DNA of 64,000 nt from a bacterium (GCA_029564595.1 JAKQPS010000120.1:16424-80423); one strand, 5' to 3'. Positions 1,867 through 31,856 are shown, counted from the first letter of the stretch. Made by a program: numbers and translations. The notes: generated by a model not told the origin, from the letters alone.

Positions 1867-4800
1867 TTAGGCGCGACGGGCGGCGGAGATTGAGGGCGCG
1901 GCCGCGGCGTCGAGCGGGATGAAGAATCCGGCGCGTGTGAAGCCGCCTGAGCGGTCGATACCGATGCGTCCGCCGTGTTTCAGGATGGCGCGGCGGGCCA
2001 GAGTCAGTCCTAATCCCATTCCTCCGGGGTTGGTTCCATAGAACGGCTCGAAGAAGCGGGAGATGTCGGCCTGCGGATATTCGGGACCGTTGTCGAGGAT
2101 TTCGACAAGGATGCCCGCCGAGCCGTCCACCTCTGAGCGGAGGGTGCGGGCGACGACCTGACCGCCGCGTCCGTTTTTCGCCGCGGCGTTCGCCGCGTTG
2201 GCGGCAAGATGCCATATAGCCATTTTTAGCAGGTTTTCGTCCGCCTTCATCTCCGGGCAGTTCCTGTCGAAGCGGGTTTCGAGGTTGACGTTCGGCGGAA
2301 GCATGTCCCTAGCTTCGAGAGCGCGCAGGGTTTCGGCGACCGCGCTGTTCACGTCGCATGAGCGCAACTGCGCCGGAGTATCCACCGAGTACATCATCAG
2401 AGAGTTCGCGGCGAGAGAAAGTTCTTTTGCGTGTTCGACGACGTCTTCCCAGATGGCGCGGGTTTCGGGAGCGAAAATGACGCCGCCGAGTTCTTTGATG
2501 TCCGCGTTGAGGTTGTCGAGGACAGACTCAAACCTGTCAGCGACGGCGCGGGCGAGGCGGGTCTTGGTTCTGGCTTCGAGCAGCCGGGAGTCGCGCGCGC
2601 GCGATTCCATCTCGCTGCCTATCTCCCGCACGCACACCACGCAGGCCTTGTTGCCTTCAGAGTCCTTCACGGCGGCCCCGGAAACACAGGCGAAGAACTT
2701 CTGCCCGCGCATGGTGCGGAGCGTCAATTCGCGGGAGGCCGCGCCTCCGATGTCCAGCCGCGCGGTGTCGAATATCGGCCCGTCTCCGGACGCGTTCAGC
2801 GCGTCTATGCTCTTGCCGAGGAATATCTCTTTGCGCGCCTCGAACCTTCTCGCGAAGGCCGCGTTCGCCATCAGTATCTTTCCGCCGTCTCCCACCACCG
2901 CCATCTCTTCAGGCATGCAGTCTATAATAGAGGAAAGGAATCTTATCTTTTTTTCTAGGAGCGGTTTTTCGAAGAGGGCTGCGCGCTCGACGTCCCGCTT
3001 CGGATCAAGCTGCTTGAGCGAGAAGATAAGCCTGCCGCCGGTTTCCGCCGGTTTGGAGACGGAGCAGACAGACATCTCGAAAGCGGACTTTTCGCCGCCC
3101 GCGCCGATCTCGACTTCAACCCGTTCGGCTTCGGACATGTTTTCGGCGGCGTTTCTTGCCGCCGCGACTGCCAGATTGCGGCTCTTTTCTGCGATCAGCG
3201 AGAAGAAGTCCGCGCCTACGATATCGCCGGCCGCGTTGAGGGCGCGAGCGGCGGCCGGGTTCATCCACTCTATCTTTCCGCCGCCGTCCACCGCGATAAG
3301 AGGCTCCGGCGCGTCGGTGGATATCTCTCTGAAGAACTTCTCCGCGCCCGCTATCTTCTCGTGCCTGTTGACGGTCTCGCTGACCTCGCGTCCGTATATG
3401 ACAGCTCCCCCGCCGCCCGCAGTGAGCGGATAGACGCGGAAGTCGTATATGGAAGGCGCGCCGCCGTGCGACGGTTGGAACCGGACGTCGCTGACGGTGA
3501 TTTCCTGAGCGGTTTCAATGGCTTTGCGGACGGCTGACGCGAGCCGTTTCTGCGCCCACGCGCCGCCCAGCGAACCGAGGCCTTTGCCCATGCAGGGCAA
3601 CGCCTCTTTCGGCATGTACGCCTCCGCCCTTTCGTTCGCCATGATCACCGCGTTCCACCTGTCTATCACCATGAAAAGGTCTTGAATGCTGGAGAGTATC
3701 GCTTGATTGAAGCGGGCTGTTTCGCGGACGCTTTCCAGAGTTTTGCCGCTCTCGCGCCTGTCTGTGGAGATGGATGCGACCATGCGGTTGAAGGCGGAGG
3801 CGAGCGGAGCGAACCCGCCCGTCTCGGCGGAGCCTATTTCCTGATTGAGATGGCCCCGCGCGATGGCGTCCATCCTGCCGCCGAGCATGAACAGGAACCG
3901 CGTGATGGACTGAGTCTCCATCACGGACAGCGCCCCGGCGGCTCCGCAAAACAAAATGAGGAAAAGCAAAAGCGTTTTCAGTATGAAATCGGCTCCGGCG
4001 GCGGCTTCCGCATACGGGCGTTGAGTTATCAGCCCCCACCCCATCGATTCGACTGGGGTGAACGACGCCGCCATCTTCACTTTGCCGTAGCGGTAGACCA
4101 TTGAGCCTATCTGGCCGGAGAGGACAGCCTTGACCGGGAGAAGTTCGGCGAATTCCTTGACGGAGCCTTCTTCTTTGTCCGGGTCGCCGCTGGCGACGAG
4201 CCTGCCTTCGGCGTCCACTAGGAATGAGAATCCGCTTTTGCCAGATGCGAGTCCGGTCACCGGCGCGCTGAAGCTCCTGTCATCCAGATTGAAGCCGGCG
4301 GCCACCACGCGGGAGACCCCGCCGCCTTCGCCGTAGGAGGGAACGAAGACGTACGCGGTGCGCTTTCCGCTGTCTAGCTTGTACATCGAGGAATAGCACG
4401 CGGCGACACCCTCGCGGGCCTGCATCAGGCATTTGTCCTTTACGAGCGCGCGGGCCGCCCCGCCGTCTTGCTCGGACGAGGCCAACAGCCGGGATTCGCT
4501 GAAAAGATACACCGAATCGACCGCCGGCATGTGCTCTATCTGCGATTTGAGAAGGGAGGAAATGACATGGTAGTCTTTGCCGCGAGAGAGACTGGACGCC
4601 GCGACTGACTGAGCGAACGCGGCGACGTTTCCCGCGGCTCCGGCTACGGCCTCCGCGCCTGAACGGGCGAGGGCCAGTTGATCGGTCTTGGTTCTGTCGA
4701 TGAGAGCGGAGCGGGCCTTGAGCGCCGAGACTGCGCCGACCACCAGCACCGCCGCCGCAACGCACGCGACATACATCATCACGTGCCGCGACTGAAGATG

Positions 4801-4872
4801 TCTCAAGCCAAGCTCGTCCCGCAACGGGCGCTCCGCCCCGTCTTCAGCGTCGATCAAATCGCGCCTGTCCAT
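1867..4872 (-). CDS. Sensor histidine kinase, multi-domain (periplasmic sensor, HAMP, PAS repeats, HisKA, HATPase_c)
   Basis: 1001 aa ORF; two hydrophobic segments bracketing an extracytoplasmic region; C-terminal ATPase motifs ILDNGPEYPQADISRFFEPFY and GGMGLGLTLARRAILKHGGRI. Confidence 0.85.
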   Translation of the reverse strand: MDRRDLIDAEDGAERPLRDELGLRHLQSRHVMMYVACVAAAVLVVGAVSALKARSALIDRTKTDQLALARSGAEAVAGAAGNVAAFAQSVAASSLSRGKDYHVISSLLKSQIEHMPAVDSVYLFSESRLLASSEQDGGAARALVKDKCLMQAREGVAACYSSMYKLDSGKRTAYVFVPSYGEGGGVSRVVAAGFNLDDRSFSAPVTGLASGKSGFSFLVDAEGRLVASGDPDKEEGSVKEFAELLPVKAVLSGQIGSMVYRYGKVKMAASFTPVESMGWGLITQRPYAEAAAGADFILKTLLLFLILFCGAAGALSVMETQSITRFLFMLGGRMDAIARGHLNQEIGSAETGGFAPLASAFNRMVASISTDRRESGKTLESVRETARFNQAILSSIQDLFMVIDRWNAVIMANERAEAYMPKEALPCMGKGLGSLGGAWAQKRLASAVRKAIETAQEITVSDVRFQPSHGGAPSIYDFRVYPLTAGGGGAVIYGREVSETVNRHEKIAGAEKFFREISTDAPEPLIAVDGGGKIEWMNPAAARALNAAGDIVGADFFSLIAEKSRNLAVAAARNAAENMSEAERVEVEIGAGGEKSAFEMSVCSVSKPAETGGRLIFSLKQLDPKRDVERAALFEKPLLEKKIRFLSSIIDCMPEEMAVVGDGGKILMANAAFARRFEARKEIFLGKSIDALNASGDGPIFDTARLDIGGAASRELTLRTMRGQKFFACVSGAAVKDSEGNKACVVCVREIGSEMESRARDSRLLEARTKTRLARAVADRFESVLDNLNADIKELGGVIFAPETRAIWEDVVEHAKELSLAANSLMMYSVDTPAQLRSCDVNSAVAETLRALEARDMLPPNVNLETRFDRNCPEMKADENLLKMAIWHLAANAANAAAKNGRGGQVVARTLRSEVDGSAGILVEILDNGPEYPQADISRFFEPFYGTNPGGMGLGLTLARRAILKHGGRIGIDRSGGFTRAGFFIPLDAAAAPSISAARRA

Positions 4873-4928: not shown

Positions 4929-5540
4929 TCAGTTGCTCGCCGCGCCGAGAATGGCTGCCGCCGCAACGCCTATCCACAGCGTGGTCTGACCTTTCTTGCG
5001 GTCGCTTCTTTCCTTGTCTAGGTCTCTGTTGAGAGCGGCGACATCCTGATTGAGCCGCCCGATGTCTTCTCTCATCTTCTTGTTTTCAGCCGCAAGCGCG
5101 TCAGTCCTCTCGCGGAACTCCACGACCGCCTTTGAGAGGTCGTTCTGGAGGACGACTCTGGCCTTCTCATTGTCCGCCACCCTCTGGTCGATAGCCTTCA
5201 TCCTGTTGTCATAGTCCGATATTTCATTTTTGAAGATGTCGCTGAGTTTCTTTATCTCCGCGAGGTCTCCGCCGCCGACGCCGATTTCTCCGCGCTCGAT
5301 CTGGTCGATGAGCTTCGCCAGAGCCGCCGCGAACACCACGCGGCTGAGCGCCTGTCCGCCTCTGAACTCTCCCGTGTCGTACAGAGCCAGATAGCCTTTG
5401 TCCACCAGCTTCTTGACGCTGGAGTACGCCCAGTCCGACTGCTTCATGTCTTTGATTTCCGTGTCCGCGCTCGCGACCGACGCCGAGAACGCCGCCAGCA
5501 GAACCGCCACAACAATCGCCTTCGCTCTCATAAACCACAC
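4929..5540 (-). CDS. Secreted coiled-coil protein with SLH-like N-terminal motif
   Basis: 203 aa; signal peptide AIVVAVLLAAFSASVASA; SDWAYSSVKKLVDKGYLALYDTGEFRGGQALSRVVFAAALAKL resembles S-layer homology domain; heptad-like central region; C-terminal hydrophobic tail. Confidence 0.6.
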   Translation of the reverse strand: MWFMRAKAIVVAVLLAAFSASVASADTEIKDMKQSDWAYSSVKKLVDKGYLALYDTGEFRGGQALSRVVFAAALAKLIDQIERGEIGVGGGDLAEIKKLSDIFKNEISDYDNRMKAIDQRVADNEKARVVLQNDLSKAVVEFRERTDALAAENKKMREDIGRLNQDVAALNRDLDKERSDRKKGQTTLWIGVAAAAILGAASN

Positions 5541-5616: not shown

Positions 5617-7776
5617 TTATTCCGAGAGCGATTTTACCACCGTTTTCTCAATTGAATACTCGATGTCGCCGCCTGAAAGGTCCTTTAGAACCAAGCCCTC
5701 GACGTCAATGCCGCTTTCGCCGGGAGCCACCGCCCTGAAATACACCTTCACAATCGAACCTTCCGCGATGTCGAGAGGCGACGAGCGCCGGCCCTTTATC
5801 CCCGTTATCGCGCCGAGCTTGTTGTCTATGGCAGGATCGCGCCACGGAAGCGGCTGGCCCTTCTCCACGAACAGCGTGCCCTGCGACGCCATGACTGCCT
5901 GAAGCACGTCCGCGTTGAAACGCACCGTCATGTCCGCCTCGCCGATCTGCTCTATGTCGGTGACGAAAAGCTCGGCGGTGAAAAACATGCCGGGGTAGGT
6001 CTCGGCGGGAGCCCCAGTCCATCCCATCGCTACGGGCAGCGGGTCAACCGTCACCTCGCGCGTCACCGTCTTGTCCTCGGCGCTCTCGGAGGTTATGTTG
6101 AACTTGAGCGGAAGCGCGCCGGATTTTTCGCCGTTCGCCGACACGCGCCACGAGAACACAACTTCCTGCAGCCCGTCCAGCCTGCGGTAACTCTGTTCCG
6201 CTTTCTGAATGCGCGGGAACTCAAGCCCCTCCGGCAGAACCAGCTCCACTTTCAGGCCGTCCAGAGGCGACCTGCCGGTGTTCTTGCACTTGAGCTGCAC
6301 ATGGAACGGCGGGCCGTACGGGCCATACTCTCTCGTGGCCGCGCGCGACACCCTCTGCGGAGCGACAACCTCGGTCGCCACGTCCGGCGGAGAAAGAAGG
6401 GTGACGCCGATTTTCAGATGCACGGAGTCCACCTCGCGGGCGCTTCCGGAGATTGTTAATTCCTTTTCGCCGCCCGCGCCCGGTTTCGGGCGTATCACCC
6501 AGCCGATGGTCGCCTCTTCGCCCGGCTCCAGCTTCGCAAAGCGTCTGACGCCGGAGTCCCTGCCCGCAAACTCGATCCCCGCAGGCAGGTCGATTGTTAT
6601 CAGCACATCGTTCAGAGTTATGTTCGAACTGTTCGCCACGTATGCGTACAGCGTGTATGGCCTTATCTGGTTTTTCGCGGTCGACCATTCGCCGAGATGG
6701 CGGTTGGCCCCGATGCTCAGCACATCGCCGACCACGTCGAGATAGTCGATGCCGAACAGGGTGGCCACCTGAAGCTCGCCCTGAGCCGGGACAACCGTCT
6801 CGTCCCAGTAGAGCGCGGTGGCGCTGTCCATGTCGTCCTCGTTCTCCCTCTGGAACGAGCCTCCCGGCGTGTGGTGGACGGTCCACAGGTTATCCGCCAC
6901 CTTTCCCCAGTTGGCAAAAAGAACCCTGTCGGGAGTCGTCAGTCCCGGCCCGCGGAGCGTGCCGCGCGCCACCACTCCGGGGTCTTCCAGCGAGTCGAAA
7001 GCGATCCAGTATTCAGGCACGTCCGCGCCGGTCAACTCGGTCTCGGAAGTCACGCTCGATTCGCCCACCTTGAACGGAGAGCCGTCGTTGCTGCCGAGGA
7101 AAGTGTCTATAACCGCCCTGACGCCCACCTTGCGCGGCGAAGCTCCCAGATTGCGTATGTCGTAGCTAATCTTTATCGTGTCGTTAAGTTTCGAGACCGG
7201 GCCGCTGACGATGCTCAGCGTTTGAGTCACCTCGACGTCTTCCATGCGGTATCTGGAGACGATGGCGTTGGCGCCGCTCGTCCGGGGAAGGTCCACCGGC
7301 TGACCGTATAGCGCGTCGCGACCCGCCCGCCTGTGCGTTGAGCCGCCGAACACGTAGTTCTTCCCGTCTATCCGAATCGTGGTGAAAGACGTCCACGGCA
7401 GCGCGCCGCCGTAGATGAGTATCTTGCTGTCGTCAGTGTCCCGCGCCGGGTCGCCTTTGACTGTGCGGGCAAGGAACCGGCCCGTGTCCACCGGCATCAC
7501 ATTCACGTGCGCCGATATGAAGTCGTTGCTGATTACCAACTCCTTGGGGCCGTCGTACTGCGGGGCCGGGTCTGCAGCCGGGGAATGACCCTCTGCCGGA
7601 GCCGGAGATGGAGCGGGCGTCGCCGCCGGAGCAGGCTCGGTGTTCAGGACTCCGTTCACGTCCGCTATGCGCGGCTTGGGACTCTCTTCGGCTCCGCGCA
7701 CGGGCAGAGCGAAAAGCGATAGAGCGACAGCCGCCGCCGCCAGCCATGCCGCCGCTATTGTGAGTTTTTTCATCAT
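5617..7776 (-). CDS. Large secreted protein of unknown function (possible cohesin-like C-terminal domain)
   Basis: Start chosen at ATG 7776 (MMKKLTIAAAWLAAAAVALSLFALPVRG signal peptide), which overlaps the upstream TGA stop (ATGATGA), rather than the ORF-track start at 7818. Pro/Ala-rich linker then about 650 aa globular region. Confidence 0.65.
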   Translation of the reverse strand: MMKKLTIAAAWLAAAAVALSLFALPVRGAEESPKPRIADVNGVLNTEPAPAATPAPSPAPAEGHSPAADPAPQYDGPKELVISNDFISAHVNVMPVDTGRFLARTVKGDPARDTDDSKILIYGGALPWTSFTTIRIDGKNYVFGGSTHRRAGRDALYGQPVDLPRTSGANAIVSRYRMEDVEVTQTLSIVSGPVSKLNDTIKISYDIRNLGASPRKVGVRAVIDTFLGSNDGSPFKVGESSVTSETELTGADVPEYWIAFDSLEDPGVVARGTLRGPGLTTPDRVLFANWGKVADNLWTVHHTPGGSFQRENEDDMDSATALYWDETVVPAQGELQVATLFGIDYLDVVGDVLSIGANRHLGEWSTAKNQIRPYTLYAYVANSSNITLNDVLITIDLPAGIEFAGRDSGVRRFAKLEPGEEATIGWVIRPKPGAGGEKELTISGSAREVDSVHLKIGVTLLSPPDVATEVVAPQRVSRAATREYGPYGPPFHVQLKCKNTGRSPLDGLKVELVLPEGLEFPRIQKAEQSYRRLDGLQEVVFSWRVSANGEKSGALPLKFNITSESAEDKTVTREVTVDPLPVAMGWTGAPAETYPGMFFTAELFVTDIEQIGEADMTVRFNADVLQAVMASQGTLFVEKGQPLPWRDPAIDNKLGAITGIKGRRSSPLDIAEGSIVKVYFRAVAPGESGIDVEGLVLKDLSGGDIEYSIEKTVVKSLSE

Positions 7777-8615
7777 TTCGTAATCATCTCGCATTTCGGG
7801 AACGCCCCGCATCTGCACCCGATCTTGGTCTTAAACGTCTTGCCCGGGTCGGACGCCACCGCGTTCCGGTTGAAGTCCATCTCGATTATTCTGCGCGTCA
7901 TCTCTATCGTGTTTATGTCAAACCGGGTTTTGGGTTGGTCGTCAAACACGACTTTAAGCTCGCCATCCGCGTAAGTCACTTCGTAGGTAAAATAAAGCCT
8001 GTCGTTGTCCGCGTCGTCCTTCTTGCAGTCAGGAACTCTGGCAAGACCGAAAGAGCCTTGAGGGAAAGGGCCTACGCCGGGGCCGACGCCCATGCGGTCG
8101 TTCCTGCCGTCGCCCACAGTGTCGATAGGCCTGTCGCCGCCCGCGCCCGCGCTTGTCGCGCCGTCTTCGGCGCGGTCCGCGACCGCTCCCGTCCGGGCGC
8201 TCGAATCGCGCCCCGTCTCGCTACCCGTAGCGCGAGGTTGCGTTTTGGAAACCTGCGGCTCTCTGTCCCGCAGCCTCTCATCCCTCGGCTTGTCCGGCAA
8301 CACCACCGGCGACTGCGTCCTGTCTCTTACCGGGGCCCTGTCCGGGGCCTCCCTGACCACCGGAGCCGCGTCCCGGTCAGGCGAGATGTCGTCAGACGCC
8401 GCAACCGGCGTCTTCGCCCCGTCCACAGGAGACGTCACCTTCACCACCCCTATCGGAAGAAGCCCCTCGCTCAACGCCCCGCCCTGTATCGCCCCGCCCG
8501 GCCTGCTGAACAGCAACCCGATTATCAGCAAAAGCGCAAGATGCAGCAACAGCGACGCCGCGTACGACGCCGCTTTCGTCTTGCGCTCGTCCGTCGTTTT
8601 CTTCTTCATCGGCAT
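7773..8615 (-). CDS. TonB-like membrane-anchored protein (atypical), partner of ExbB/ExbD
   Basis: N-terminal TM anchor, long Pro/Asp/Arg-rich spacer, roughly 100 aa C-terminal domain ending in CRCGAFPKC; position directly after exbD. C-terminal domain does not clearly match canonical TonB. Confidence 0.5.
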   Translation of the reverse strand: MPMKKKTTDERKTKAASYAASLLLHLALLLIIGLLFSRPGGAIQGGALSEGLLPIGVVKVTSPVDGAKTPVAASDDISPDRDAAPVVREAPDRAPVRDRTQSPVVLPDKPRDERLRDREPQVSKTQPRATGSETGRDSSARTGAVADRAEDGATSAGAGGDRPIDTVGDGRNDRMGVGPGVGPFPQGSFGLARVPDCKKDDADNDRLYFTYEVTYADGELKVVFDDQPKTRFDINTIEMTRRIIEMDFNRNAVASDPGKTFKTKIGCRCGAFPKCEMITK

Positions 8616-8624
8616 CGACCGCCT

Positions 8625-9053
8625 TTAGTCTCCATCCTTCTGCTTCAACTGCAGCGCGAGCTTTTTGCCGCCCGAACTGTTCACGATGTCGATCACCCTG
8701 ACCACGTCGTCGTAAAGCACCTCCGGCTCGGCGGCAACCACGAACGCCGAATCCGGCTCCGACGACAGTTTTGCCGACACCATCGCCCCCAGAGTGTCCG
8801 GCGTAACCTGCAAGTCCTCGAAAAATATCGCCACATCCTGCCCGCCGCCGTGTTTGACGGACACCTGCACATGCTTCTGCAACGGCTCCACTTCCGACTT
8901 TTCGGGAAGATTAAGGTTCATCCCCGTCCGCGCCGATATCAGAGTGGTCGAGACGGCAAAGAATATTATCAGCGTGAAAGCGCAGTCGATGAGCGGAGTG
9001 AAATCTATGCTCGGCTTAATCCTGCTCGACCGCTTGTACCTAATTTGAAACAT
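8625..9053 (-). CDS. exbD: Biopolymer transport protein ExbD/TolR
   Basis: 142 aa; single N-terminal TM (IDFTPLIDCAFTLIIFFAV) and periplasmic domain, typical ExbD/TolR layout; overlaps exbB stop. Confidence 0.8.
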   Translation of the reverse strand: MFQIRYKRSSRIKPSIDFTPLIDCAFTLIIFFAVSTTLISARTGMNLNLPEKSEVEPLQKHVQVSVKHGGGQDVAIFFEDLQVTPDTLGAMVSAKLSSEPDSAFVVAAEPEVLYDDVVRVIDIVNSSGGKKLALQLKQKDGD

Positions 9054-9672
9054 CGGCCCGGCCCTCCATCCGCATGAAGTTGACCAACTCCGTGACCGAC
9101 TTCTCCATCTGATTGATTATCCTGTCCACCCTCGCGGCGAGCAGGTTGTGGAATATCATGAAGATAATCGCTATCGTCAGCCCGGTCGCGGTGGTGATGA
9201 GGGCCTCCGCGATTCCGCCCGACAACTGCTCGCTGTTGCCGATGTGCCCGCCCGCGATTACGCTGAACAGCTTCATCAGCCCCGTAATAGTTCCCAGAAG
9301 CCCCAGCAGCGGCGCGACCGTCACTAGGGTGGACAGTATCGGCAGCCCTCTCTCCATCCGGGGAGCTTCCTCAAGGAACGCCTCGTTCACGCCCTCTTTC
9401 AACTCCTCCAGTTCGAGATCGTGCAGGTCGATCGCCGTCGCAAGCGCCGCCGCCACCGGGCCCGGCGTCGCTTCGCAGTATCCGACCGCCACCCGGAAAT
9501 CTTTCTTCTTGAGCGCGTCCTTTACTTTGCCGATCAGTTTTTCCGGGTCCGCCCCGGCGCGGCTCAGACTGTAAAACCGCTCGATTGTTATCGCAAGAGC
9601 CACAATCGAGCACAGCAGCAGCGGCCACATCACCGGCCCGCCCTTTGTCATTATGTCCACTATCGCGCTCAT
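9040..9672 (-). CDS. exbB: MotA/TolQ/ExbB proton channel family protein
   Basis: 210 aa; three TM helices with conserved C-terminal region GGIAEALITTATGLTIAI typical of ExbB/TolQ. Confidence 0.8.
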   Translation of the reverse strand: MSAIVDIMTKGGPVMWPLLLCSIVALAITIERFYSLSRAGADPEKLIGKVKDALKKKDFRVAVGYCEATPGPVAAALATAIDLHDLELEELKEGVNEAFLEEAPRMERGLPILSTLVTVAPLLGLLGTITGLMKLFSVIAGGHIGNSEQLSGGIAEALITTATGLTIAIIFMIFHNLLAARVDRIINQMEKSVTELVNFMRMEGRADVSN

Positions 9673-10248
9673 TGCCGTCCTCCGTTTTTTACTTTGTATT
9701 TTTTCATCGTTGAAAGCGCTGTTTTGTCGCTTAAAGTGCGGAATAATTCCGCTTTGTCCTAGATTCTATTATGCGCTCTTCGAAAAATCAACCCTTCTCA
9801 GTAAAATATTCACCTATAGTTGCCGACAGTTATTTCTATTAAACGGGGGATAAACAACAAACAAGCCATAAATGATTGCCGTCTGCGGTTTTGTCCTTTT
9901 TGTCTCTTATGCCCGCCCTCGTCCCCGCTCGCCTTATTTAGACAATGCTCGCGCTCATTCCGGAGCTTTTTCTCAAAAATATCGATATGGCAAAAATAAT
10001 GGAACCCGAACTCGCAGTTTATCCCGGGTTCGCCGATAGATTGTTCAACTTCGAAGAGAGTTCCGGGTTTTTCGCGGTTCTTCTTATCGTTGCGGAACAA
10101 ATACGCGCGAAAAAGTTTTGGCAAAAGGAGCTTTGGCGAAACAACCCGTTTTAAACGGTTTTTTCGGGTTAATTGACCGGCGGAGAGAACAAAACTATCA
10201 TATCAGAGGCGCGCCGAAGCGCGCGCAATCAGCCCGGAGGAGGGCATC

Positions 10249-11343
10249 ATGGACATTAAAAAACTCGTTCTCCCGCATCTTTTCGAAATCAAACCATACG
10301 TACCCGGAAAGCCCATACAGGAGGTTCAGCGCGAACTTGGCATAGACGACGTTCTGAAGCTGGCGTCGAACGAGAACACCATAGGCCCTTCGCCGAAAGC
10401 GGTCGAGGCTATCCGCGCAGCGGCGGCGGGCGTGAACTTCTACCCCGACGGCGGATGCTACTACCTGAAAGAAAAACTGAGCGCGAAACTGGGCGTCGGA
10501 TCCGACAGCGTAGTGGTCGGAAGCGGCATAGACGAGTTGCTGCGCATACTTTGCGTGTCCTGCCTCGGCCCGAAAGACGAAGTAATTTTCGCCGACCCCT
10601 CGTTCGTGATGTATAAAATCTCCGCAATGGTGGCGGACGCCACTCTGATATCCGTGCCATGCAAAGACAGATACTACCACGACATCCCCGCCATGCTCGA
10701 CCGCGTGACGGACAGAACCAAGCTTTTCTTTCTGTGCAACCCGAACAATCCGACCGGGACGATAGTGAAGAAGGCGGACGTCGAGCTTCTCATGAGCAAG
10801 ATTCCGGAACATGTCCTTGTGGTGTTCGACGAAGCTTACTACGAATACGCTTCCGACCCTGATTATCCACAGACGATGGAGTATTTCAAATCGGGGCGCG
10901 ATGTCGTAATCTTCAGGACGTTCTCGAAGGTGTACGGCCTTGCCGGGCTGCGCGCCGGATACGGAATCATGAGCGAGGAACTGGCGGGCGTGTTCCACCG
11001 CGTGAGGAATCCGTTCAACGTCAACGAGCTTGCTCAGGTCGCGGCTCTGGCCGCGCTCGACGACGACGAGCATGTCAAACGCGTGGTTGAAGCAAACGCG
11101 GCGGGAAGAAAACAGTTCTACGCCGCTTTCGACGCCATGGGCCTCGAATACGCGCCGTCCGACGCCAACTTCGTTCTGGTCGACATCAAGCGCGACTCGG
11201 AAGAGATATTCAACGCGCTCCTGAAAAAAGGAGTTATCGTGCGACCCGGCAGGTTCCTCGGATTCCCGACCGGATTGCGAGTTTCGGTGTCCGATGAAAA
11301 GGCCAACGCGCGGTTCATCGCGGCTCTGAAGGAAGTCCTTTGA
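10249..11343 (+). CDS. hisC: Histidinol-phosphate aminotransferase
   Basis: 364 aa; class II aminotransferase motifs LASNENTIGPSP, CNPNNPTG, and PLP-lysine context RTFSKVYGLAGLRAGY. Confidence 0.9.
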   Translation: MDIKKLVLPHLFEIKPYVPGKPIQEVQRELGIDDVLKLASNENTIGPSPKAVEAIRAAAAGVNFYPDGGCYYLKEKLSAKLGVGSDSVVVGSGIDELLRILCVSCLGPKDEVIFADPSFVMYKISAMVADATLISVPCKDRYYHDIPAMLDRVTDRTKLFFLCNPNNPTGTIVKKADVELLMSKIPEHVLVVFDEAYYEYASDPDYPQTMEYFKSGRDVVIFRTFSKVYGLAGLRAGYGIMSEELAGVFHRVRNPFNVNELAQVAALAALDDDEHVKRVVEANAAGRKQFYAAFDAMGLEYAPSDANFVLVDIKRDSEEIFNALLKKGVIVRPGRFLGFPTGLRVSVSDEKANARFIAALKEVL

Positions 11344-13063: not shown

Positions 13064-14401
13064 TCAGCCCGGCGCCGGAGAGTCGTTCGCCGCATCCTGT
13101 TTCTGCTTCAGCGGCCGCAGGCCGATGAAAGCGGCCAGCGCGCAGACTCCCAGTATCGCCGCGCAAGCGCCGAACGGCGCGTAGCGGCCCGCGAGATTGT
13201 ACGTGTTCTCCGCGATTGTTATCTCGATTTTCAGCCCGTCGCCATATAGCACCGGACCAAGGAAAAGGCCGATCGCCGCCCCGGCTCCCTGAAACGCCGT
13301 TACCACGCCCAGAACAGCCCCGCGAAGCCCCGCCCACTCGCCGCGCGTCACCAGCGCCATCCACGCCGGCGCGCCCACAACAAACGCCAGCCCGTACCCC
13401 GCAGCCGCCACCCCCAGCGTCCACGGCTCCCTCACAATCGCCATCAGCCCGAGACATACCGCGGAGATGGACATCGACACTTTTACCGCCGCCTCCCTGC
13501 CCGCGACGTCCGCCAAGCGGCCCGCAGGCAGCGCCAACAGCGCTATCCCCGCCCCCGCCAGCGGGATCACGTACCACAAATCCTTCTCCTCCCATCCAAG
13601 CTCGTCGAATAGGAAGAAGAACGTCGTGTGCGTCACCATGCTCGTGCCCATCATCTGCATGAACGCGATGAAAATCAGAGTGGCGAGCTGTCCCAGAACC
13701 GGCCAGTCCGTCAGCAGTTTCTTCAGGTTCTGCGCCATCGTAGCCGGGTCGGCGGCGCGCGCCCGCGCGTCAACGCCCGCTTTCACCGCCCTGCATATCC
13801 TCTTCGACGACCACACCGTCAGAACCATCGCGCACACCATCAGCAGGCTCATAGTCGCGAACACGTGCTCATAGTCGCCGAACGTCGCTTTAATCAGCGG
13901 GGCCAGAGTGAACCCTATGCCGAGGCTGCACAACATGCAGATGGTAAAAACGCTCATCGCGGTTGCGCGGTGTTTCTCGTCCGTCGCGTCCGCGAACAGG
14001 GCGATAATCGCCGGCCACAGCGCGGCGGCCCCCGCCCCGTCTATCAGCCTCAGCGCCAGAAACGCTCCCGGCCCCTGCGCCTTGGCGTAAAAAAACGGCG
14101 TCACCATCCCCACCGCTAAGCTCAGCATCACAAGATTCGTCCGCTTCACCCGGTCGCCCAGCCCGCCCGTGATCGGCTTCAGCGCCGTCTCAGACAACAC
14201 GAACCCAGACTGCGCCGCCCCGGCCAGCACCTTCGACCATCCCCTGCCCGCAAACAACAGCGGAACCAACGGGATCATCATCTTATAGCAAAGGTCCGCC
14301 GACAGCGTCACCGCCGCAAGCAGCAACACCACCGGATACCTTCGGAAAAATTCCCTTATCGATATCCTCGCCTCGTTGTCCGCTCCCCGTTCCGTAAACA
14401 T
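13064..14401 (-). CDS. MFS transporter
   Basis: 445 aa with about 12 hydrophobic segments; motif GGLGDRVKR in the TM2-3 loop position typical of major facilitator superfamily. Confidence 0.8.
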   Translation of the reverse strand: MFTERGADNEARISIREFFRRYPVVLLLAAVTLSADLCYKMMIPLVPLLFAGRGWSKVLAGAAQSGFVLSETALKPITGGLGDRVKRTNLVMLSLAVGMVTPFFYAKAQGPGAFLALRLIDGAGAAALWPAIIALFADATDEKHRATAMSVFTICMLCSLGIGFTLAPLIKATFGDYEHVFATMSLLMVCAMVLTVWSSKRICRAVKAGVDARARAADPATMAQNLKKLLTDWPVLGQLATLIFIAFMQMMGTSMVTHTTFFFLFDELGWEEKDLWYVIPLAGAGIALLALPAGRLADVAGREAAVKVSMSISAVCLGLMAIVREPWTLGVAAAGYGLAFVVGAPAWMALVTRGEWAGLRGAVLGVVTAFQGAGAAIGLFLGPVLYGDGLKIEITIAENTYNLAGRYAPFGACAAILGVCALAAFIGLRPLKQKQDAANDSPAPG

Positions 14402-14527
14402 CCTCGTATCGCTCCCTTATAAAACGCCCGTTTTTTTATCAGCATTGAAAAAATGCGCTTCATGTTTTTCTCCGCTGCCAAAAACATCCCTGAGTATCGC
14501 GCAAACTAAGTGATTGAAACTGCACAA

Positions 14528-14614
14528 TTTGGAGTGCGGCGATTCATCGCCTTTATTTTGATAAGCGACTGAAGTCGCTTATATGAAAGCGACAATGAAT
14601 TGTCGCACTCCAAA
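14528..14614. repeat. Nested palindrome cluster: 20-bp inverted repeat arms (2 mismatches) enclosing perfect palindromes ATAAGCGACT-GA-AGTCGCTTAT and GCGACAAT-GA-ATTGTCGC
   Basis: Read directly: arms TTTGGAGTGCGGCGATTCAT (14528-14547) and ATGAATTGTCGCACTCCAAA (14595-14614); inner palindromes at 14561-14582 and 14589-14606. Confidence 0.6.
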
Positions 14615-14677
14615 GCAAAACAAACATAAACCCTTCTTCACATATGCAATATTTTCAACTGCGCGACTGCCTGTGTT

Positions 14678-15541
14678 TCATTGGTAGTCATGAAAATATT
14701 GATGCATTCTTTCCCTAATACTTATGCATTGCTGACACAAACCATCCGCTTGTTTTCCATCAACTTCAACTATGGCTGCTCCTGATAAAAGTATTAATGT
14801 CATCAAATCGAGCGTGTTCTTTATCGCACGGATATGCATTCTTGGAATGGGGTCTATATTCACCAGTCGAACATCTCCGCTTTCATAGATAAACAAATCA
14901 TCCGGCCCTCTTTTGCCATGTGTGATCATGCAGAAATCACGATACGATTTTTTATATTCATTTCTGAAGTGGCCAGAATTGTGCTTGGCATCGATTCTAT
15001 CGCATTCTTGTTGATAATTTAATTGATTCCCGAGCGCTTTTACTCTTTCTTTGCTGCTGGAAGTTAAATCTGCAGATTCAATTTCTCTTTCAAGTCCAGA
15101 CTTCATTTCTCCTAGTTCGTTCAGGTAGTCAGCATAATCTTTAGAGTAATATTCGTAGATTTTTTTGTGTTCATTTATCTCATTTAGTCGAAAACCAAAT
15201 GCCGCTTCTATTGGCTCATCTTTTAATATTAGAATTCGTATCCAACACTCCCATAATGTTCGAATTATTATGTATGCGGAATCAGGATATCCTGACAAAG
15301 ATATTTTTAACGCAGCAACACAATGTCTGAAAGACCTTGCTAGCACAGGAACAAGAACTTCGTCATGAATAATGCTTTTATTCGGATACTCGATTTCTGT
15401 TTTTATTATCCCAAATAGAATCTTTTCGCATTCTTCTAAAAGTTCCAAAACACCCTTAATCTGTATGATGTTCTCTTCGTGCTTGTCATTCATTGCTTTA
15501 TTAAAACGTAACCAACCCACATGTTCGTCAAGAATTTCCAT
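14678..15541 (-). CDS. Hypothetical protein in AT-rich island; possible HEPN-like Rx6H motif
   Basis: Start chosen at ATG 15541 (MEILDEH, AAGGG upstream) rather than the GTG at 15637. Strongly AT-rich codon usage unlike neighbours. RDFCMITH near C-terminus fits R-x(4-6)-H. No family recognised. Confidence 0.5.
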   Translation of the reverse strand: MEILDEHVGWLRFNKAMNDKHEENIIQIKGVLELLEECEKILFGIIKTEIEYPNKSIIHDEVLVPVLARSFRHCVAALKISLSGYPDSAYIIIRTLWECWIRILILKDEPIEAAFGFRLNEINEHKKIYEYYSKDYADYLNELGEMKSGLEREIESADLTSSSKERVKALGNQLNYQQECDRIDAKHNSGHFRNEYKKSYRDFCMITHGKRGPDDLFIYESGDVRLVNIDPIPRMHIRAIKNTLDLMTLILLSGAAIVEVDGKQADGLCQQCISIRERMHQYFHDYQ

Positions 15542-15828
15542 GTCTGAACCCTTTTTATTCAAACATTTACACATAATCAGTTTTCTGCATTTCGTCAGAA
15601 CCATATAATTCTTTCTTTCTATAACCCTCATTGCCACGCGAACACGATTCTTATTATAGCGCCGACAAATCTAATAGTAAGCTTTGCCTAATTACTCGCC
15701 CGTTAAGATTATGTGAAAAATGGCGCTGTAAACGGAGGCGGTTTCATGTTATGATTCCACGAAAGCACAACCGTCGGCGCCGGGGTCTTTTGGCAACCGG
15801 GACGCGGCGGACATCGCGGAGGCGAACC

Positions 15829-16824
15829 ATGAAATGCTCCACATGCGGAACCAACCTCGAACCGGGCGACGCGTTTTGCCCTGAATGCGGAACAAAAGCG
15901 GCTCCCGCGCAGGCGGCCGCCAAACCCGCCGCGCCTCCGCCTCCGCAGCATCCTAAACAACCTGCCGCCGCAGCGCCGCCTCCGCAATATCCTAAACAGC
16001 CCGCAGCCGCCGAAGACGAGGAAATCCTCCCCGGCAAAAAGAAAAAAGAAAAGAAAGAAAAAAAACAGAAACTTCCTAAAGAGCCTAAAACGCCCAAAGC
16101 TCCGCGCGCGCCTAAGGCTCCGAAAGACCCGAACGCGAAGAAGAAACCAGTCGTACTGTTGATCGTGTTGCTGGTCGTCGCGGCCGGCGCGGCGGCATTT
16201 ATGACATTCGGCAATAAACCCTCCGAACCGCCCATGCCCATGCCCAACAGCGCCGTCCGCCCCGCCGCTCAGCGCCCTGCTTCCGCCCCTGCCGCCCGCG
16301 TTCCCAGAACTGGCGACATTCAGGAGCCCGGCGTGGACAAGTTCGCCGCCCGCATATGCCGCAACTCAATGTCAGACGTGAAAGCTGTGGACGACCTTAC
16401 CAGCTTCGAGTTCATCGCTAGAATATCCGCCGATCCCGCCGCTCTCGCGGCCAAGAAAATCGACATGAGGGACTACGTTTCCGCCGCCGCAGACGCGGTC
16501 CGCGCGGACATCGAGAAACAGGGAATGAAGCCCTGCGAAAGCTGCAACGTCGCCCTCGCCAAAGAGATGGAATGCGGACAAGTCCTCGGCGCGCTCGGCT
16601 CCGTTCTCGTCAAAGAAAACCTGCTGAAAAACACGCCCGAGATTCGGCCCGCCGCCGCCGAAACCGGCGTGGCGAACTGCGGCGTGTTCGTGCTCGAACA
16701 GAAATGGCCCGGCGCGGCTTCGCCCTCTCAGGTCGCCTATTTCACAGGCGAAATCAACGGCAGGCGGTCAATACTCTTCTACGCCGCCACCAGCCATTTC
16801 GCCTCTGAAATCGCGTCTCAATAG
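15829..16824 (+). CDS. Zinc-ribbon domain membrane protein with Pro-rich repeats
   Basis: Start chosen at ATG 15829 (GGAGG 8 nt upstream): MKCSTCGTNLEPGDAFCPECG zinc ribbon; duplicated PPPQHPKQPAAA; Lys-rich spacer; single TM VVLLIVLLVVAAGAAAF; extracytoplasmic domain. Confidence 0.6.
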   Translation: MKCSTCGTNLEPGDAFCPECGTKAAPAQAAAKPAAPPPPQHPKQPAAAAPPPQYPKQPAAAEDEEILPGKKKKEKKEKKQKLPKEPKTPKAPRAPKAPKDPNAKKKPVVLLIVLLVVAAGAAAFMTFGNKPSEPPMPMPNSAVRPAAQRPASAPAARVPRTGDIQEPGVDKFAARICRNSMSDVKAVDDLTSFEFIARISADPAALAAKKIDMRDYVSAAADAVRADIEKQGMKPCESCNVALAKEMECGQVLGALGSVLVKENLLKNTPEIRPAAAETGVANCGVFVLEQKWPGAASPSQVAYFTGEINGRRSILFYAATSHFASEIASQ

Positions 16825-21898: not shown

Positions 21899-22101
21899 AT
21901 GTATAAAACCCGAATCCGCCTTTAGGATTTGAGAGCGAATCGCCTCCGCGCTTCCCCTCCCGACGACCCATACAAAATCATTTATGAATAAGATTCCACT
22001 GAAAAACCCTTATCCAACATCTTTTCACATGAGCGCGGCGGAGCGAAGGCGCGAACGCGCCCGCTTCGCCGCGCTCATTGAAACGTTTCAAAAGGGATTT
22101 T

Positions 22102-22131
22102 AAGGGAAAACTTTTTCAAAAGTTTTCCCTT
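22102..22131 (-). terminator. 13-bp perfect hairpin AAGGGAAAACTTT-TTCA-AAAGTTTTCCCTT, probable terminator of the oxidoreductase operon; member of a palindromic element family
   Basis: Immediately 3' of the stop at 22144; T-rich tract follows on the minus strand; core resembles GGGGAAA..TTTTTGCAAAAA..TTTCCCC elements near 26050 and 28850. Confidence 0.55.
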
Positions 22132-22143
22132 AACTCCCCGCCT

Positions 22144-23148
22144 TTAGAGCGGCAGCGAGACAGGCGCGACGCGGCGGGCGGATTCGTAGGCGGCGAGAGC
22201 GATTTCGAGAGCTTTGAGGCCGTCGATAGCGGGCACGGGAGCCGGGCCGCCGGCGAGGACCGCGCGGACGAAGTCGTCGATAAGCAACGCGTCCATGTTG
22301 TCGCCCCATCCCTTCCAGACCGCCATCCCCGCCCTGTCGTCGCAACAGAGAGCGTTCTGCGCGAACGCGTCAAGCTCGATCGCGCCAGCGTCTCCAAAGA
22401 TGTTTATCGTCACGTCGCCCCATGTCGGAAACGATTTCGGGCGCGACCAACTCGTGTCAATGGTCGCGAAAAAGCCCCCTTCGAACTTCACGGACAGCAA
22501 GCCCGCGTCGTCCAGCCCCAAACCCGAATGCAGGAGAGAGTTTCCGACTTCCGCGAACACCTCGACGGCGTCGGCGGCAAGAATCCAGCGGAGGACGTCC
22601 GCCACGTGGACGGTGTGGTCGATAACCGCTCCGCCGCCGGACTGCGCGGCGTCGAGGAACCAGCCGGGGGGCATGCGTCCATGGTTCGTGCAGGAGGCGG
22701 CTATCGGGCGGCCTATCTCCCCGGCCATGATTTTTTCCCTCAACCTCGCCACTGGCGGGGAATACCTAACAGGAAACGCGATGGAGAGAATCCGCCCGGC
22801 GCGCTCGAAAGCCGACATCATCGCGCGCGCGTCGGCGAGCGTGTGCGCGATAGGTTTTTCGCAGAGCGCGTGGACTCCGGCGGCGGCGCACGCCTCGGCG
22901 TCCCGGCGGTGCGCCGCGTTTTCAGAGCATATCACCGCGAAGTCAGGTTTCAGCCGGTCGAGCAGCTCCGGCAGATTGTCGTCGTAAGCCGCGCCCAGCT
23001 TTTCCGCCGCCGCGCTCCCTCGTTGCGCATCGTCATCGTACACGCCGCAGACGGAGACGTCTTCCCGCCTCGCCAGACAGTTCGCGTAACTATTGGCGTG
23101 CGGGTGAGCGAAACTTGCCATGACCGCTTTAAGTTTCAATGACGACAA
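22144..23148 (-). CDS. Gfo/Idh/MocA family oxidoreductase
   Basis: 334 aa; N-terminal Rossmann region and the EKP motif (HALCEKPIAHTLADARAM) characteristic of the family. Confidence 0.8.
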   Translation of the reverse strand: MSSLKLKAVMASFAHPHANSYANCLARREDVSVCGVYDDDAQRGSAAAEKLGAAYDDNLPELLDRLKPDFAVICSENAAHRRDAEACAAAGVHALCEKPIAHTLADARAMMSAFERAGRILSIAFPVRYSPPVARLREKIMAGEIGRPIAASCTNHGRMPPGWFLDAAQSGGGAVIDHTVHVADVLRWILAADAVEVFAEVGNSLLHSGLGLDDAGLLSVKFEGGFFATIDTSWSRPKSFPTWGDVTINIFGDAGAIELDAFAQNALCCDDRAGMAVWKGWGDNMDALLIDDFVRAVLAGGPAPVPAIDGLKALEIALAAYESARRVAPVSLPL

Positions 23149-28683: not shown

Positions 28684-28720
28684 CCCCGCCGCACAAAAAA
28701 TGTGAGAAGTTTGGGAAATG

Positions 28721-28775
28721 GGGTTTGGGGAAAGAACCCTTTTCAAAGGGTTTTTCCCCAATCGCCGAAGGCGAA
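28721..28775. repeat. Palindromic element copy C (GGGGAAAGAACCCTTTT-CAAA-GGGTTTTTCCCC)
   Basis: Read directly; same family as hairpin cores at 26046-26085, 28826-28864 and 22102-22131. Confidence 0.55.
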
Positions 28776-28814
28776 AACCTCTTATATCAGCTTTTTCGGG
28801 TTTAAGGATTCTTC

Positions 28815-28935
28815 GTATGTGTGCGGGGAAACCATTTTTTGCAAAAATAGGTTTCCCCGCGCCCCTTCCAAAAAAACTCCCGGACGCCGCTTTTCGCTGA
28901 ACTCCGTTCAACGCAAAAACCGGCTTCTTTCCATA
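28815..28935 (+). repeat. About 120-bp repeat element, copy B, with hairpin GCGGGGAAACC-ATTTTTTGCAAAAATA-GGTTTCCCCGC
   Basis: Direct alignment to reverse complement of 25975-26095; together they flank the glycoside hydrolase gene in inverted orientation. Confidence 0.7.
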
Positions 28936-29190
28936 GTGAATTCCCTACTCCCGTGTTGGCAAAAAAGACGGGTTACTTAAAACAAAACATTCAATTTGCC
29001 AAATAGGGAGCATTATGATAACATCGAAGCAAAGCATTACAAAAATCGGCAATATCTAAAAAAACAATGTTCATAAGGCCTTTTATGGATTTTGAGACTT
29101 GAAGTAACAGAATATAAGGAGCATCGTATAACATCTCGCAAGTGAGTAACGTTGATGATAACTCGTAATTGTTAGTATTATCGGAGGGCT

Positions 29191-30027
29191 ATGAAAACCA
29201 AGATAATAACATTGTCGTCTGATGTTGTTGAAAAGGCTGATTTGCTTGAATATGAGAAAATGATTTTAGATAACAAAAACATAAGTGAGCACAATGCATC
29301 CAAATTCTTTGCCAAGTTTCCAAAGTTTCTTTCAATAGGCGGCTATAAAGAATTTGCAAGAGAAATAGTATTATCTACACCTCAAAATGAACAGATGTAT
29401 CGTGTGGATTTTTGTAGGAAGCGGTACGGCACATTGTACTGGGACATAGTTGAACTTAAAAGACCCGGGATTCAGGCATTGGTAAAGAAAGGAAAACATT
29501 GGCATTTTTCTGATGCGGTGCAGAAAGGGATAGATCAATCATATGATTACAGAAATTTGATGCATGATAAAACAAATATGGAATTAACAGAGAATAAAAC
29601 GGGAATTAGAATTTACAGACCCAAGATATTGCTAATTGCTGGCAGAAAAGATAACGATATCGGGGAAGATGAATTGATTGATTTGATAGATAAATACAAC
29701 CATTTTGAGTTTTTGACTTATGACGATCTTTTTAATAGTCATACAGAACACTATAAATCAACACTGATTGTTGTCCCCGTGTTCGAAGGCGATGACATAC
29801 CGATAGAAGATTCTGGGGTTCAACTTAAAAGACATATTCAAGAAATGCTAGTTGTGTTGACAAATAAGGAAAGACGTGTTCTCGAATTAAGGTTTGGATT
29901 GATTGACGGAATACCGCGTGATTGCGAAACGATAGCAGAATCAATGAATGAAAATCCAAGCAATATAAGAAAGATTGAATCAAAAGCTTTACGCAAGCTT
30001 AGGTTTCCTCCAACTACCAGACTTTAA
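29191..30027 (+). CDS. Two-domain protein: N-terminal Shedu/DUF4263-like PD-(D/E)xK nuclease-like domain fused to C-terminal sigma-70 region-4 HTH
   Basis: 278 aa, AT-rich codons, GGAGG before ATG. N-terminal FFAKFPKFLSIG...RVDFCRKRYGTLYWDIVELKRPG...QKGIDQSYDY fits D...E-x-K...Q nuclease signature; C-terminal LTNKERRVLELRFGLIDGIPRDCETIAESMNENPSNIRKIESKALRKLR is a near-textbook sigma-70 region 4.2. Confidence 0.6.
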   Translation: MKTKIITLSSDVVEKADLLEYEKMILDNKNISEHNASKFFAKFPKFLSIGGYKEFAREIVLSTPQNEQMYRVDFCRKRYGTLYWDIVELKRPGIQALVKKGKHWHFSDAVQKGIDQSYDYRNLMHDKTNMELTENKTGIRIYRPKILLIAGRKDNDIGEDELIDLIDKYNHFEFLTYDDLFNSHTEHYKSTLIVVPVFEGDDIPIEDSGVQLKRHIQEMLVVLTNKERRVLELRFGLIDGIPRDCETIAESMNENPSNIRKIESKALRKLRFPPTTRL

Positions 30028-30077
30028 GAAGTTCTTGGAAAGAAACAATTAGAGTGAATCCGAGATTGTTGTCTGTA

Positions 30078-31610: not shown

Positions 31611-31619
31611 GACTTCCTC

Positions 31620-31811
31620 CAGAAAAACGCTTACAACACGAGAATTATAGTTATATTTTAGCATGTGGCAAGAAAAACAGTTACGGCGGCAAATGCTGTA
31701 AGCTTCTTAGTCTGACAAGAAAAACGCTTACAAGGCAAGAAAAACGCTTACATAACAGCCTGCGACAAGAAAAACGCTTACAACGCGGCCTGTGGCAAGA
31801 AAAACAGTTAT
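31620..31811 (+). repeat. Array of six direct repeats CAAGAAAAAC(G/A)(C/G)TTAC (iteron-like) upstream of the Fic gene
   Basis: Copies at 31620, 31669, 31717, 31736, 31766, 31796 read directly; first copy degenerate; spacings 19-48 bp. Confidence 0.8.
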
Positions 31812-31856
31812 GTCGGCGCGGGCGGATGTAGGAACGCGCCGGCGGTGTATAATGAG

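Follow-up and report, generated by a model that had tools for sequence, protein, structure and literature searches.

A conserved five-gene module encoding a Ton/Tol-type motor, a divergent TonB-family protein, a cohesin-fold protein and a putative SLH tether in a candidate bacterial lineage

We analysed a 64,000-nucleotide (nt) stretch of bacterial DNA (GCA_029564595.1, JAKQPS010000120.1:16424-80423), referred to throughout as the window, with positions counted from its first letter. The subject of this report is a group of five genes on its minus strand, reading from 9672 to 4929, in the order exbB, exbD, a gene for a divergent TonB-family protein (the third gene), a gene for an exported protein of 719 amino acids (aa; the fourth gene) and a gene for an S-layer homology (SLH) protein (the fifth gene). 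The features of the locus are as follows.

9763–9791, minus strand: candidate promoter of sigma-70-like type (TTGATT-17-TAGAAT), some 90 nt upstream of exbB and within the 525 nt that separate it from a divergent aminotransferase gene; weak, and from a consensus scan only
9040–9672, minus strand: exbB, ExbB/TolQ-family proton-channel subunit, 210 aa (PF01618, E = 1.7e-32)
8625–9053, minus strand: exbD, ExbD/TolR-family subunit, 142 aa (PF02472, E = 4.3e-21)
7773–8615, minus strand: third gene, divergent TonB-family force transducer, 280 aa
5617–7776, minus strand: fourth gene, Sec-exported all-beta protein, 719 aa
4929–5540, minus strand: fifth gene, Omp-alpha-like tether, about 200 aa, with a likely ATG start at 5531 (SLH, E = 9.1e-6)
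1867–4872, minus strand: dCache-HAMP-PAS-histidine kinase, 1001 aa (Pfam), 56 nt downstream of the SLH gene

exbD overlaps exbB by 14 nt, the third gene begins nine bases downstream of exbD, and the TGA of the third gene shares the letters ATGA with the ATG of the 719-aa open reading frame (ORF), giving a 4-nt stop/start overlap; 76 nt then separate the fourth gene from the fifth. An earlier note on this DNA, made from the sequence alone, had remarked on the stop/start overlap, on the secretion of the 719-aa protein and on an SLH protein following it. The first two are borne out, the second by a signal-peptide-like N-terminus, and the SLH protein does follow (SLH at 9.1e-6, with a coiled coil), except that its gene, at 4929–5540, lies just outside the interval 5617–9672 in which the note had placed the group.

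Relatives of the 719-aa protein were sought by a word-index search, which gave 42 homologues, and by a pattern scan of one genome per species, which gave 419 stretches; the best 80 of these 419 provide the list of carrier taxa. They comprise kin of the window organism at 94–97% identity (bacterium UBP15_UBA6099 and ADurb.Bin236, both unclassified), the Halanaerobiales Orenia, Natroniella, Halonatronum, Halanaerobacter and Frackibacter, and further Limnochordia, many Bacillota metagenome-assembled genomes (MAGs), UBP13, Armatimonadota and “Hebobacteria”. None of the best 80 stretches has a Negativicutes label.

The five-gene order is identical in Orenia marismortui, a Bacillota MAG, close relatives and one distant relative. 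Among 85 loci, the fourth protein is present in 83, the SLH protein in 80, ExbD in 73 and ExbB in 72, the gaps being mostly truncated contigs, and on every contig of sufficient length the order of ExbB, ExbD, third gene, fourth gene and SLH protein hardly varies. Relative to the fourth gene, ExbB lies at position −3 in 62 related loci, ExbD at −2 in 52 of the 53 that have it, and the fifth protein at +1 in 75 of the 76 that carry one. When all flanking genes were clustered, only the five were conserved throughout; the next family was a PHP-domain gene (27 loci), and others were a SleB-type hydrolase (21 loci) and a histidine kinase (9 loci). Because the order is kept while all the surrounding genes have changed, the conserved unit is five genes. 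These travel together, in order, across Halanaerobiales, Limnochordia, UBP13, UBP15 and Armatimonadota, that is, over phylum-level distances. Dozens of distant genomes repeat the same order, far more than chance would allow. We regard it as highly probable that the parts are correctly identified and that a conserved module exists.

Limnochordia-type and Halanaerobiales loci have sporulation genes around the module (L038, 1703–2497 and 10418–11889; L003, 945–2530; L001, 3773–4889 and 10665–11243). In Limnochordia-type loci spoIIAA-spoIIAB-sigF lies upstream and spoVAC-spoVAD downstream, while in Orenia the module comes after spmA/spmB-like Gate-domain genes and before a SleB-type Hydrolase_2 gene. 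Since sigF and spoVA are adjacent in Bacillus, the module appears to be inserted between them.

ExbB has three hydrophobic segments and the conserved Thr motifs LGLLGTITG and ALITTATG, and ExbD retains the transmembrane Asp, D22 (TPLIDCAF). The earlier note had called both proteins canonical. By sequence they are clear members of the proton-channel motor superfamily, with the Pfam E values given above, but the narrower description does not hold. Against NCBIfam, ExbB scores 76.6 bits for tolQ (E = 2.2e-21; cut-off 221) and 64 bits for exbB (E = 1.4e-17; cut-off 206), and the tolR match is at 51.7 bits with a cut-off of 127.3. Because the scores are far below the equivalog cut-offs for both, neither the ExbB/ExbD nor the TolQ/TolR label is earned.

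The third protein is, as had been described, anchored in the membrane and has a Pro/Asp/Arg-rich stretch. Its N-terminal membrane helix contains S21-x3-H25, the same SxxxH motif with which the anchor helix of TonB and TolA docks on the motor. A disordered linker of about 140 residues (approximately 40–180), rich in G, A, D, R and P, leads to a C-terminal domain (178–280) of β-β-α-β-β topology, and the C-terminus reads ...IGCRCGAFPKCEMITK. In an alignment of close relatives (A2), S21 and H25 are invariant (and nearly so in a second alignment, A4), the spacer is variable, charged and Pro/Gly-rich, and the C-terminal domain is conserved as VPDCKKDDADNDSL...TI.QTRR.IE..F...CRCG..PKC. The terminal Cys cluster that had been pointed out, C267, C269 and C275, is thus conserved, together with C197.

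The C-terminal domain had been judged not to match TonB clearly, and indeed neither Pfam nor NCBIfam gives a match to the window protein at E values up to 0.1. In more distant genomes the same slot holds a gene of 215–450 aa, and 37 of 38 positional orthologues match Pfam TonB_C (PF03544), the best at 8.7e-23; across 38 distant orthologues the His of the docking motif is invariant and the Ser is at least 90% conserved. In a profile–profile comparison, the C-terminal domain of the window's group aligns to the TonB_C region of the orthologues with 96.2% probability and P = 2.2e-9. A reversed profile gave 6.7e-4, over the membrane helix only, and five column-shuffled profiles gave 0.59 or worse. 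The judgement thus holds for family searches and fails for the fold: because the C-terminal domain is a divergent TonB_C fold, the third protein is a true TonB-family transducer, which is atypical only in its sequence and in four extra Cys.

An exhaustive phmmer search with the C-terminal 96 residues against 1.84 billion representatives gave 11 matches, eight or nine of them true relatives. With the Cys-rich form of the head (PDC...CRCG..PKC) found in only about eight cluster representatives among the 1.84 billion, this variant is a rare elaboration specific to its lineage. Word-index searches with the third protein, alone and as an alignment, returned the protein itself plus one relative; low-complexity linkers flooding the candidate list are probably the cause. 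Two kinds of match were set aside. Weak TolA matches among PDB sequences (E about 2e-3) covered the helix and linker and are probably driven by composition. Two giant repetitive proteins, P0045 (5345 aa) and P0053 (3331 aa), matched residues 27–94 of the TonB-like C-terminal query, with E = 5e-19 and 1.9e-5, in 7–12 stretches; as P0053 yielded scattered Pfam matches and no significant stretch, the giant-protein matches look compositional.

The 719-aa protein begins with MMKKLTIAAAWLAAAAVALSLFALPVRG, which resembles a signal peptide, and since there is no Cys near the predicted cleavage site it has no lipobox. A Pro/Ala linker follows, which is poorly conserved and is almost absent in Halanaerobiales. 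The remainder comprises a galactose-mutarotase-like beta-supersandwich (about 79–345), two CARDB/NEW3-type immunoglobulin (Ig)-like domains (about 346–580, from Pfam) and a cohesin fold (about 581–719). The Pfam matches are NPCBM_assoc at 1e-7, with DUF11 and Cohesin weak, and there are no TolB, PD40 or WD40 matches in the protein. The AlphaFold2 model is all-beta and of high confidence, with a mean predicted local distance difference test (pLDDT) score of 85.4 and 427 residues above 90, and the best fold matches of its supersandwich N-domain are carbohydrate-active enzyme modules and aldose epimerases.

Between distant groups, the N-domain is 44% identical, rising to 54% in the loop at residues 100–130, and the Ig and cohesin domains are about 22% identical. 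This pattern suggests that the N-domain may have a constant ligand, and the Ig and cohesin domains co-evolving protein partners. The loop itself (TGRF...GDP.R..DD.K.LIYG.P.PWTSYTT) is the most conserved stretch of the protein, with many invariant residues, yet the folded model has its lowest confidence there (pLDDT 59–73); the loop could be flexible and serve in an interaction or in ligand binding. We considered an N-terminal TonB box and set it aside, the linker after the signal peptide being unconserved and nearly absent in Halanaerobiales.

The fifth protein has a signal peptide (…ASVASA before DT), an SLH domain, a coiled-coil stalk and a basic patch, RSDRKKGQ, and terminates in a hydrophobic Gly/Ala-rich helix of 18 residues, TTLWIGVAAAAILGAASN, about 55 residues past the aligned stalk. 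It has no lipobox cysteine because no Cys follows the signal peptide, and it carries an SLH rather than an OmpA-like domain. The SLH match (9.1e-6 in Pfam) is accompanied by a match to the N-terminal part of the NCBIfam family por_somb (cyanobacterial SomB-type porins) at 1.5e-14. Residues 16–148 show homology, over SLH domain and stalk, to Deinococcus radiodurans SlpA (7zgx, 1.7e-7) and Veillonella OmpM (8bys, 8.7e-7; 8bym, 1.1e-5), but the C-terminal outer-membrane beta-barrel of those proteins is missing from the fifth protein, which has the single helix instead. A C-terminal membrane segment is also said to have been described in Omp-alpha, by Engel et al. in 1992. Nearly all orthologues of the fifth protein, whose lengths range from 144 to 795 aa, keep the helix, and the extra length of the longer forms is coiled coil only.

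The length of the TonB-like protein rises with that of the fifth protein (Spearman 0.63, n = 67 loci, not corrected for phylogeny), a trend that fits two proteins bridging one and the same gap in the periplasm. The three longest tethers (725–795 aa) are without longer TonB proteins. Short forms without an SLH domain, of about 144 aa, were seen in Hebobacteria, Armatimonadota and one other locus (L080, 3748–4182; L063, 9014–9448; L082, about 8929–9296). These retain the signal peptide, coiled coil, basic patch and ...WIA(I/V)GVLA(V/I)G... helix, so that the helix end, and not SLH, is the most constant feature of the fifth protein.

A classical Ton system would be expected to serve TonB-dependent receptors, and the earlier note had seen no receptor gene nearby. 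This is confirmed: no TonB-dependent receptor family was found among the window ORFs of at least 450 aa, all of which were scanned with Pfam or are antisense to a confirmed gene, and a single one of these ORFs (50076–51560, 494 aa) is without any Pfam match. Nor is a gene for a TonB-dependent receptor or a large outer-membrane barrel conserved in the 7-kb flanks of related loci, where the Pfam census of large flanking ORFs covered the top 25 families and a single receptor in one locus could escape. In Halothermothrix orenii, genes for ExbB, ExbD and a putative TonB lie side by side on the chromosome, whereas the whole genome has no detectable TonB-dependent receptor; its authors suggest either a different function or receptors too divergent to be recognised (PMC2626281). 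A Halothermotrichaceae locus (L069) has the fourth and fifth genes of the module, on a contig that ends upstream before the motor genes.

The earlier note had also proposed that the locus encodes an envelope machine driven by the proton-motive force, other than classical TonB uptake. Our results support this proposal, the actual function being inferred. The two downstream genes are kept next to exbB-exbD-tonB across phylum-level distances. The combination that would speak for classical uptake, namely a TonB_C domain with a receptor partner and unconserved downstream genes, is not present as a whole, because the TonB_C fold was found with no receptor partner and with the downstream genes conserved.

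With the Ton system the module shares the motor families, the SxxxH helix, the disordered spacer and TonB_C, a domain that 37 of 38 orthologues show clearly and the window protein in divergent form. It differs in having no linked TonB-dependent transporter, in the obligate linkage of two non-receptor genes and, in the window, in a C-terminal domain with four extra Cys that falls below Pfam detection. The resemblance to Tol-Pal is one of logic: by analogy, both have five genes in the same order, two motor subunits, a transducer, an exported, soluble protein rich in beta structure and, at the outer-membrane end, a protein that binds the wall, and the transducer of the module has an SxxxH helix, a long spacer and a TonB/TolA-fold head, with no nutrient receptor involved. 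The components differ. TolB consists of an N-terminal alpha/beta domain and a six-bladed beta-propeller, whereas the fourth protein has a supersandwich, two Ig domains and a cohesin; Pal is a lipoprotein with an OmpA-like peptidoglycan-binding domain, whereas the fifth protein is SLH, coiled coil and helix with no lipobox; and the motor subunits are far below the TolQ and TolR equivalog cut-offs.

The fifth protein has its closest counterparts in Omp-alpha, OmpM and SlpA, with which it shares an N-terminal SLH domain and a coiled-coil stalk, the relationship to SlpA and OmpM being one of homology. Omp-alpha of Thermotoga has an SLH domain and a long coiled coil, is enriched in the toga, and like the fifth protein has no beta-barrel (PMC10160955); the match to it is one of architecture, judged from the published description of Omp-alpha. 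The fifth protein differs from Omp-alpha and OmpM in being much shorter (about 200 aa), with a single terminal hydrophobic helix and with SLH absent in a few lineages, and in always lying downstream of the motor-TonB-cohesin set; we found no such set reported for either. The force transducers with a von Willebrand A (vWA) head encoded beside TolQR-like motors (Williams-Jones et al., 2025; PMC12204202) also have a 5:2-type motor, a transducer with an SHLS helix and a non-receptor output, and were likewise found by gene neighbourhood. These vWA-headed proteins are known from Proteobacteria, the PVC group and Bacteroidetes, whereas the module has a TonB_C head, two other partner genes and a distribution in Terrabacteria-type lineages. 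What is new is therefore the obligate pairing of a Ton/Tol motor with a cohesin-bearing periplasmic protein and an Omp-alpha-type tether, with no receptor; the motor and transducer families are known.

We tentatively favour the reading that the five-gene operon is a proton-motive-force-driven envelope machine of Ton/Tol type with a non-receptor output, analogous to Tol-Pal, and put its chance a little short of even. The ExbB-ExbD channel would drive the TonB-type arm, and the TonB head would cross the periplasm to engage the 719-aa protein, the tether, or both. The proton gradient might then be used to load, release or relocate a tether between peptidoglycan and the outer membrane, and the operon would be a functional analogue of TolQ-TolR-TolA-TolB-Pal in SLH-tethering lineages reported to be without Tol-Pal.

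Several published observations form the setting for this proposal. Tol-Pal is reported only in Gracilicutes and, among Firmicutes, Ton systems with receptors are catalogued in Negativicutes only (PMC12204202). In diderm Terrabacteria the outer membrane is tethered via SLH-stalk proteins (PMC10628300, PMC10160955), and these bacteria, with allied candidate phyla, are reported to be without Tol-Pal, Lpp and Pal. Tethering is held to differ fundamentally between the two groups, being achieved by SLH-stalk proteins (OmpM, SlpA, Omp-alpha) in Terrabacteria and by Lpp, Pal and OmpA in Gracilicutes, where Tol-Pal moves the tether during division. The module links a Ton/Tol-type motor to an SLH tether in one operon, which makes it a candidate for energising or remodelling SLH-tethered envelopes, and of the three diderm Firmicutes lineages two, Halanaerobiales and Limnochordia, carry it, as do several candidate phyla. 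The 2025 survey of force transducers (PMC12204202), which states that further motor-linked systems remain to be found, makes no mention of the module, its supplements being without Halanaerobiales or Limnochorda, and we found no other paper describing it in open-access full text.

A number of points weigh against the Tol-Pal analogue. Because TolB and Pal homologues are absent here, the parallel is drawn from gene order and architecture only. An outer membrane is only presumed in the window organism, which belongs to an unclassified candidate lineage. A role in handling glycans would be equally compatible with a supersandwich and a cohesin fold. Three loci (L063, L080 and L082) have a fifth protein without an SLH domain, so direct wall binding is not universal. 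Lastly, the C-terminal helix of the fifth protein could stay in the inner membrane instead of the outer, with the basic patch on the periplasmic side.

The last point leads to a different system, running between the inner membrane and the wall, in which the helix is a stop-transfer anchor, possibly beside the ExbB-ExbD-TonB helices, SLH grips the wall, the 719-aa protein is a wall-glycan adaptor, and the motor works on the wall itself or on its distance from the membrane. We consider this unlikely. The fifth protein has the classical type-I membrane-anchor layout, a Sec signal at one end and a hydrophobic helix closing the chain at the other; the SLH-less variants retain the helix, and the most conserved part of the 719-aa protein is an N-domain of carbohydrate-binding type; some carriers, moreover, are labelled Clostridia or Peptococcaceae, which may have another type of envelope. 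However, a stop-transfer anchor does not usually have its basic residues N-terminal (periplasmic) of the helix and next to no cytoplasmic tail, as is the case here. The SLH domain and stalk are homologous to those of OmpM and SlpA, whose C-terminal ends are in the outer membrane, and Omp-alpha, with the same layout, occurs in the Thermotoga toga (PMC10160955).

Glycan capture and uptake, or surface assembly, energised by TonB is another reading that we think improbable. In this scheme the 719-aa protein would bind polysaccharide by its supersandwich and Ig domains, the cohesin would dock a partner, and TonB would power release, or import via an unrecognised outer-membrane channel. It would account for the fold matches of the N-domain to carbohydrate-active enzyme modules and aldose epimerases, and for NPCBM_assoc/NEW3 and cohesin domains, which are typical of glycan-degrading assemblies; in Bacteroides receptors, Ig-like N-terminal extensions have been implicated in TonB interaction (PMC12204202). 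It would not account for the gene neighbourhood, in which the module has no conserved neighbour encoding a glycoside hydrolase, a sugar transporter or an outer-membrane channel, the adjoining genes are of housekeeping or sporulation type, and the wall-binding tether, not a transporter or channel, is the constant partner.

We give little credence to an ordinary Ton system that serves receptors encoded elsewhere and has two unrelated neighbours downstream. ExbB, ExbD and a TonB-family protein are all present, and in other bacteria tonB and receptors are often unlinked (PMC12204202). Yet the five-gene order is kept across phylum-level divergence while the surroundings change, the TonB-like gene has a 4-nt stop/start overlap with the next, the H. 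orenii genome showed no receptor (PMC2626281), and the Firmicutes Ton systems with receptors are those catalogued in Negativicutes (PMC12204202).

Nor do we find it at all probable that the module remodels the envelope in sporulation or germination of diderm Firmicutes, acting at the time when the outer membrane forms from the mother-cell membrane that surrounds the forespore. A route of this kind could bring a helix-anchored tether to the future outer membrane, and the module does lie between spoIIAA-spoIIAB-sigF and spoVAC-spoVAD in Limnochordia-type loci and near spmA/spmB-like and SleB-type genes in Orenia. This synteny, however, may be plain inherited gene order within Firmicutes, and the loci of the window, UBP13, Armatimonadota and Hebobacteria have no sporulation neighbours; conservation in carriers that do not sporulate is already seen in part. 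A Zorya-like anti-phage system on a MotA/ExbB-type motor is rejected: the weak ZorA matches of ExbB (E about 1e-3 in PADLOC and 0.029 in NCBIfam) reflect the shared MotA/ExbB/TolQ superfamily only, no other PADLOC family matches apart from coiled-coil noise, and the chromosomal position is stable within lineages and outside any defence island.

If the Tol-Pal analogue is correct, it would explain a puzzle from 2009, that Halothermothrix orenii has ExbB-ExbD-TonB without a receptor. A broader idea, which we offer as a speculation with clearly less than an even chance, is that diderm Terrabacteria and allied candidate phyla have their own proton-driven machine for outer-membrane tethering and constriction, composed of ExbB-ExbD, a TonB-type arm, a cohesin-bearing protein and an Omp-alpha-type SLH tether. 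It would be either an independent counterpart of Tol-Pal or a relic of an ancestral use of TonB before nutrient receptors or TolA. The module bears on the ancestral role of TonB-like transducers, import or envelope maintenance, and structural studies of a TonB head that does not engage a receptor plug would have in it a defined set of partners.

Upstream of exbB, a non-coding region of about 575 nt (9673–10248; 525 nt to the longest antisense ORF) separates it from a divergent aminotransferase gene (10249–11343), which is followed by a cytidylate-kinase-like gene. This non-coding region contains a few promoter-like hexamer pairs and short hairpins. A megablast of the locus against plasmids gave no match. 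An Rfam search over the whole window found one tRNA only, with nothing in the non-coding region and no riboswitch upstream of exbB, and a terminator scan gave matches at chance level. Downstream, there is no terminator-like site between the SLH gene and the histidine kinase (1867–4872), and the two are possibly co-transcribed. The kinase is a lineage-specific neighbour outside the conserved core, occurring at position +2 in only nine loci, all of the window's own group.

Elsewhere in the window, three islands (14001–16000, 28001–32000 and 56001–60000) have a GC content of 0.43–0.47, compared with about 0.58–0.62 in the remainder, and may be acquired DNA. They encode a DUF5677 protein (14678–15637, with a GC content at third codon positions, GC3, of 0.33), a Fic/DOC protein (30078–31664) with a neighbouring ORF of low GC3 (29191–30027), and a DUF2339 membrane protein (57362–59749). 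Three ORFs have no Pfam match at E up to 0.001, at 22078–23142 (plus strand, 354 aa), 35999–37027 (plus strand, 342 aa) and 50076–51560 (minus strand, 494 aa). Small ORFs are found downstream of the histidine kinase, at 164–1724.

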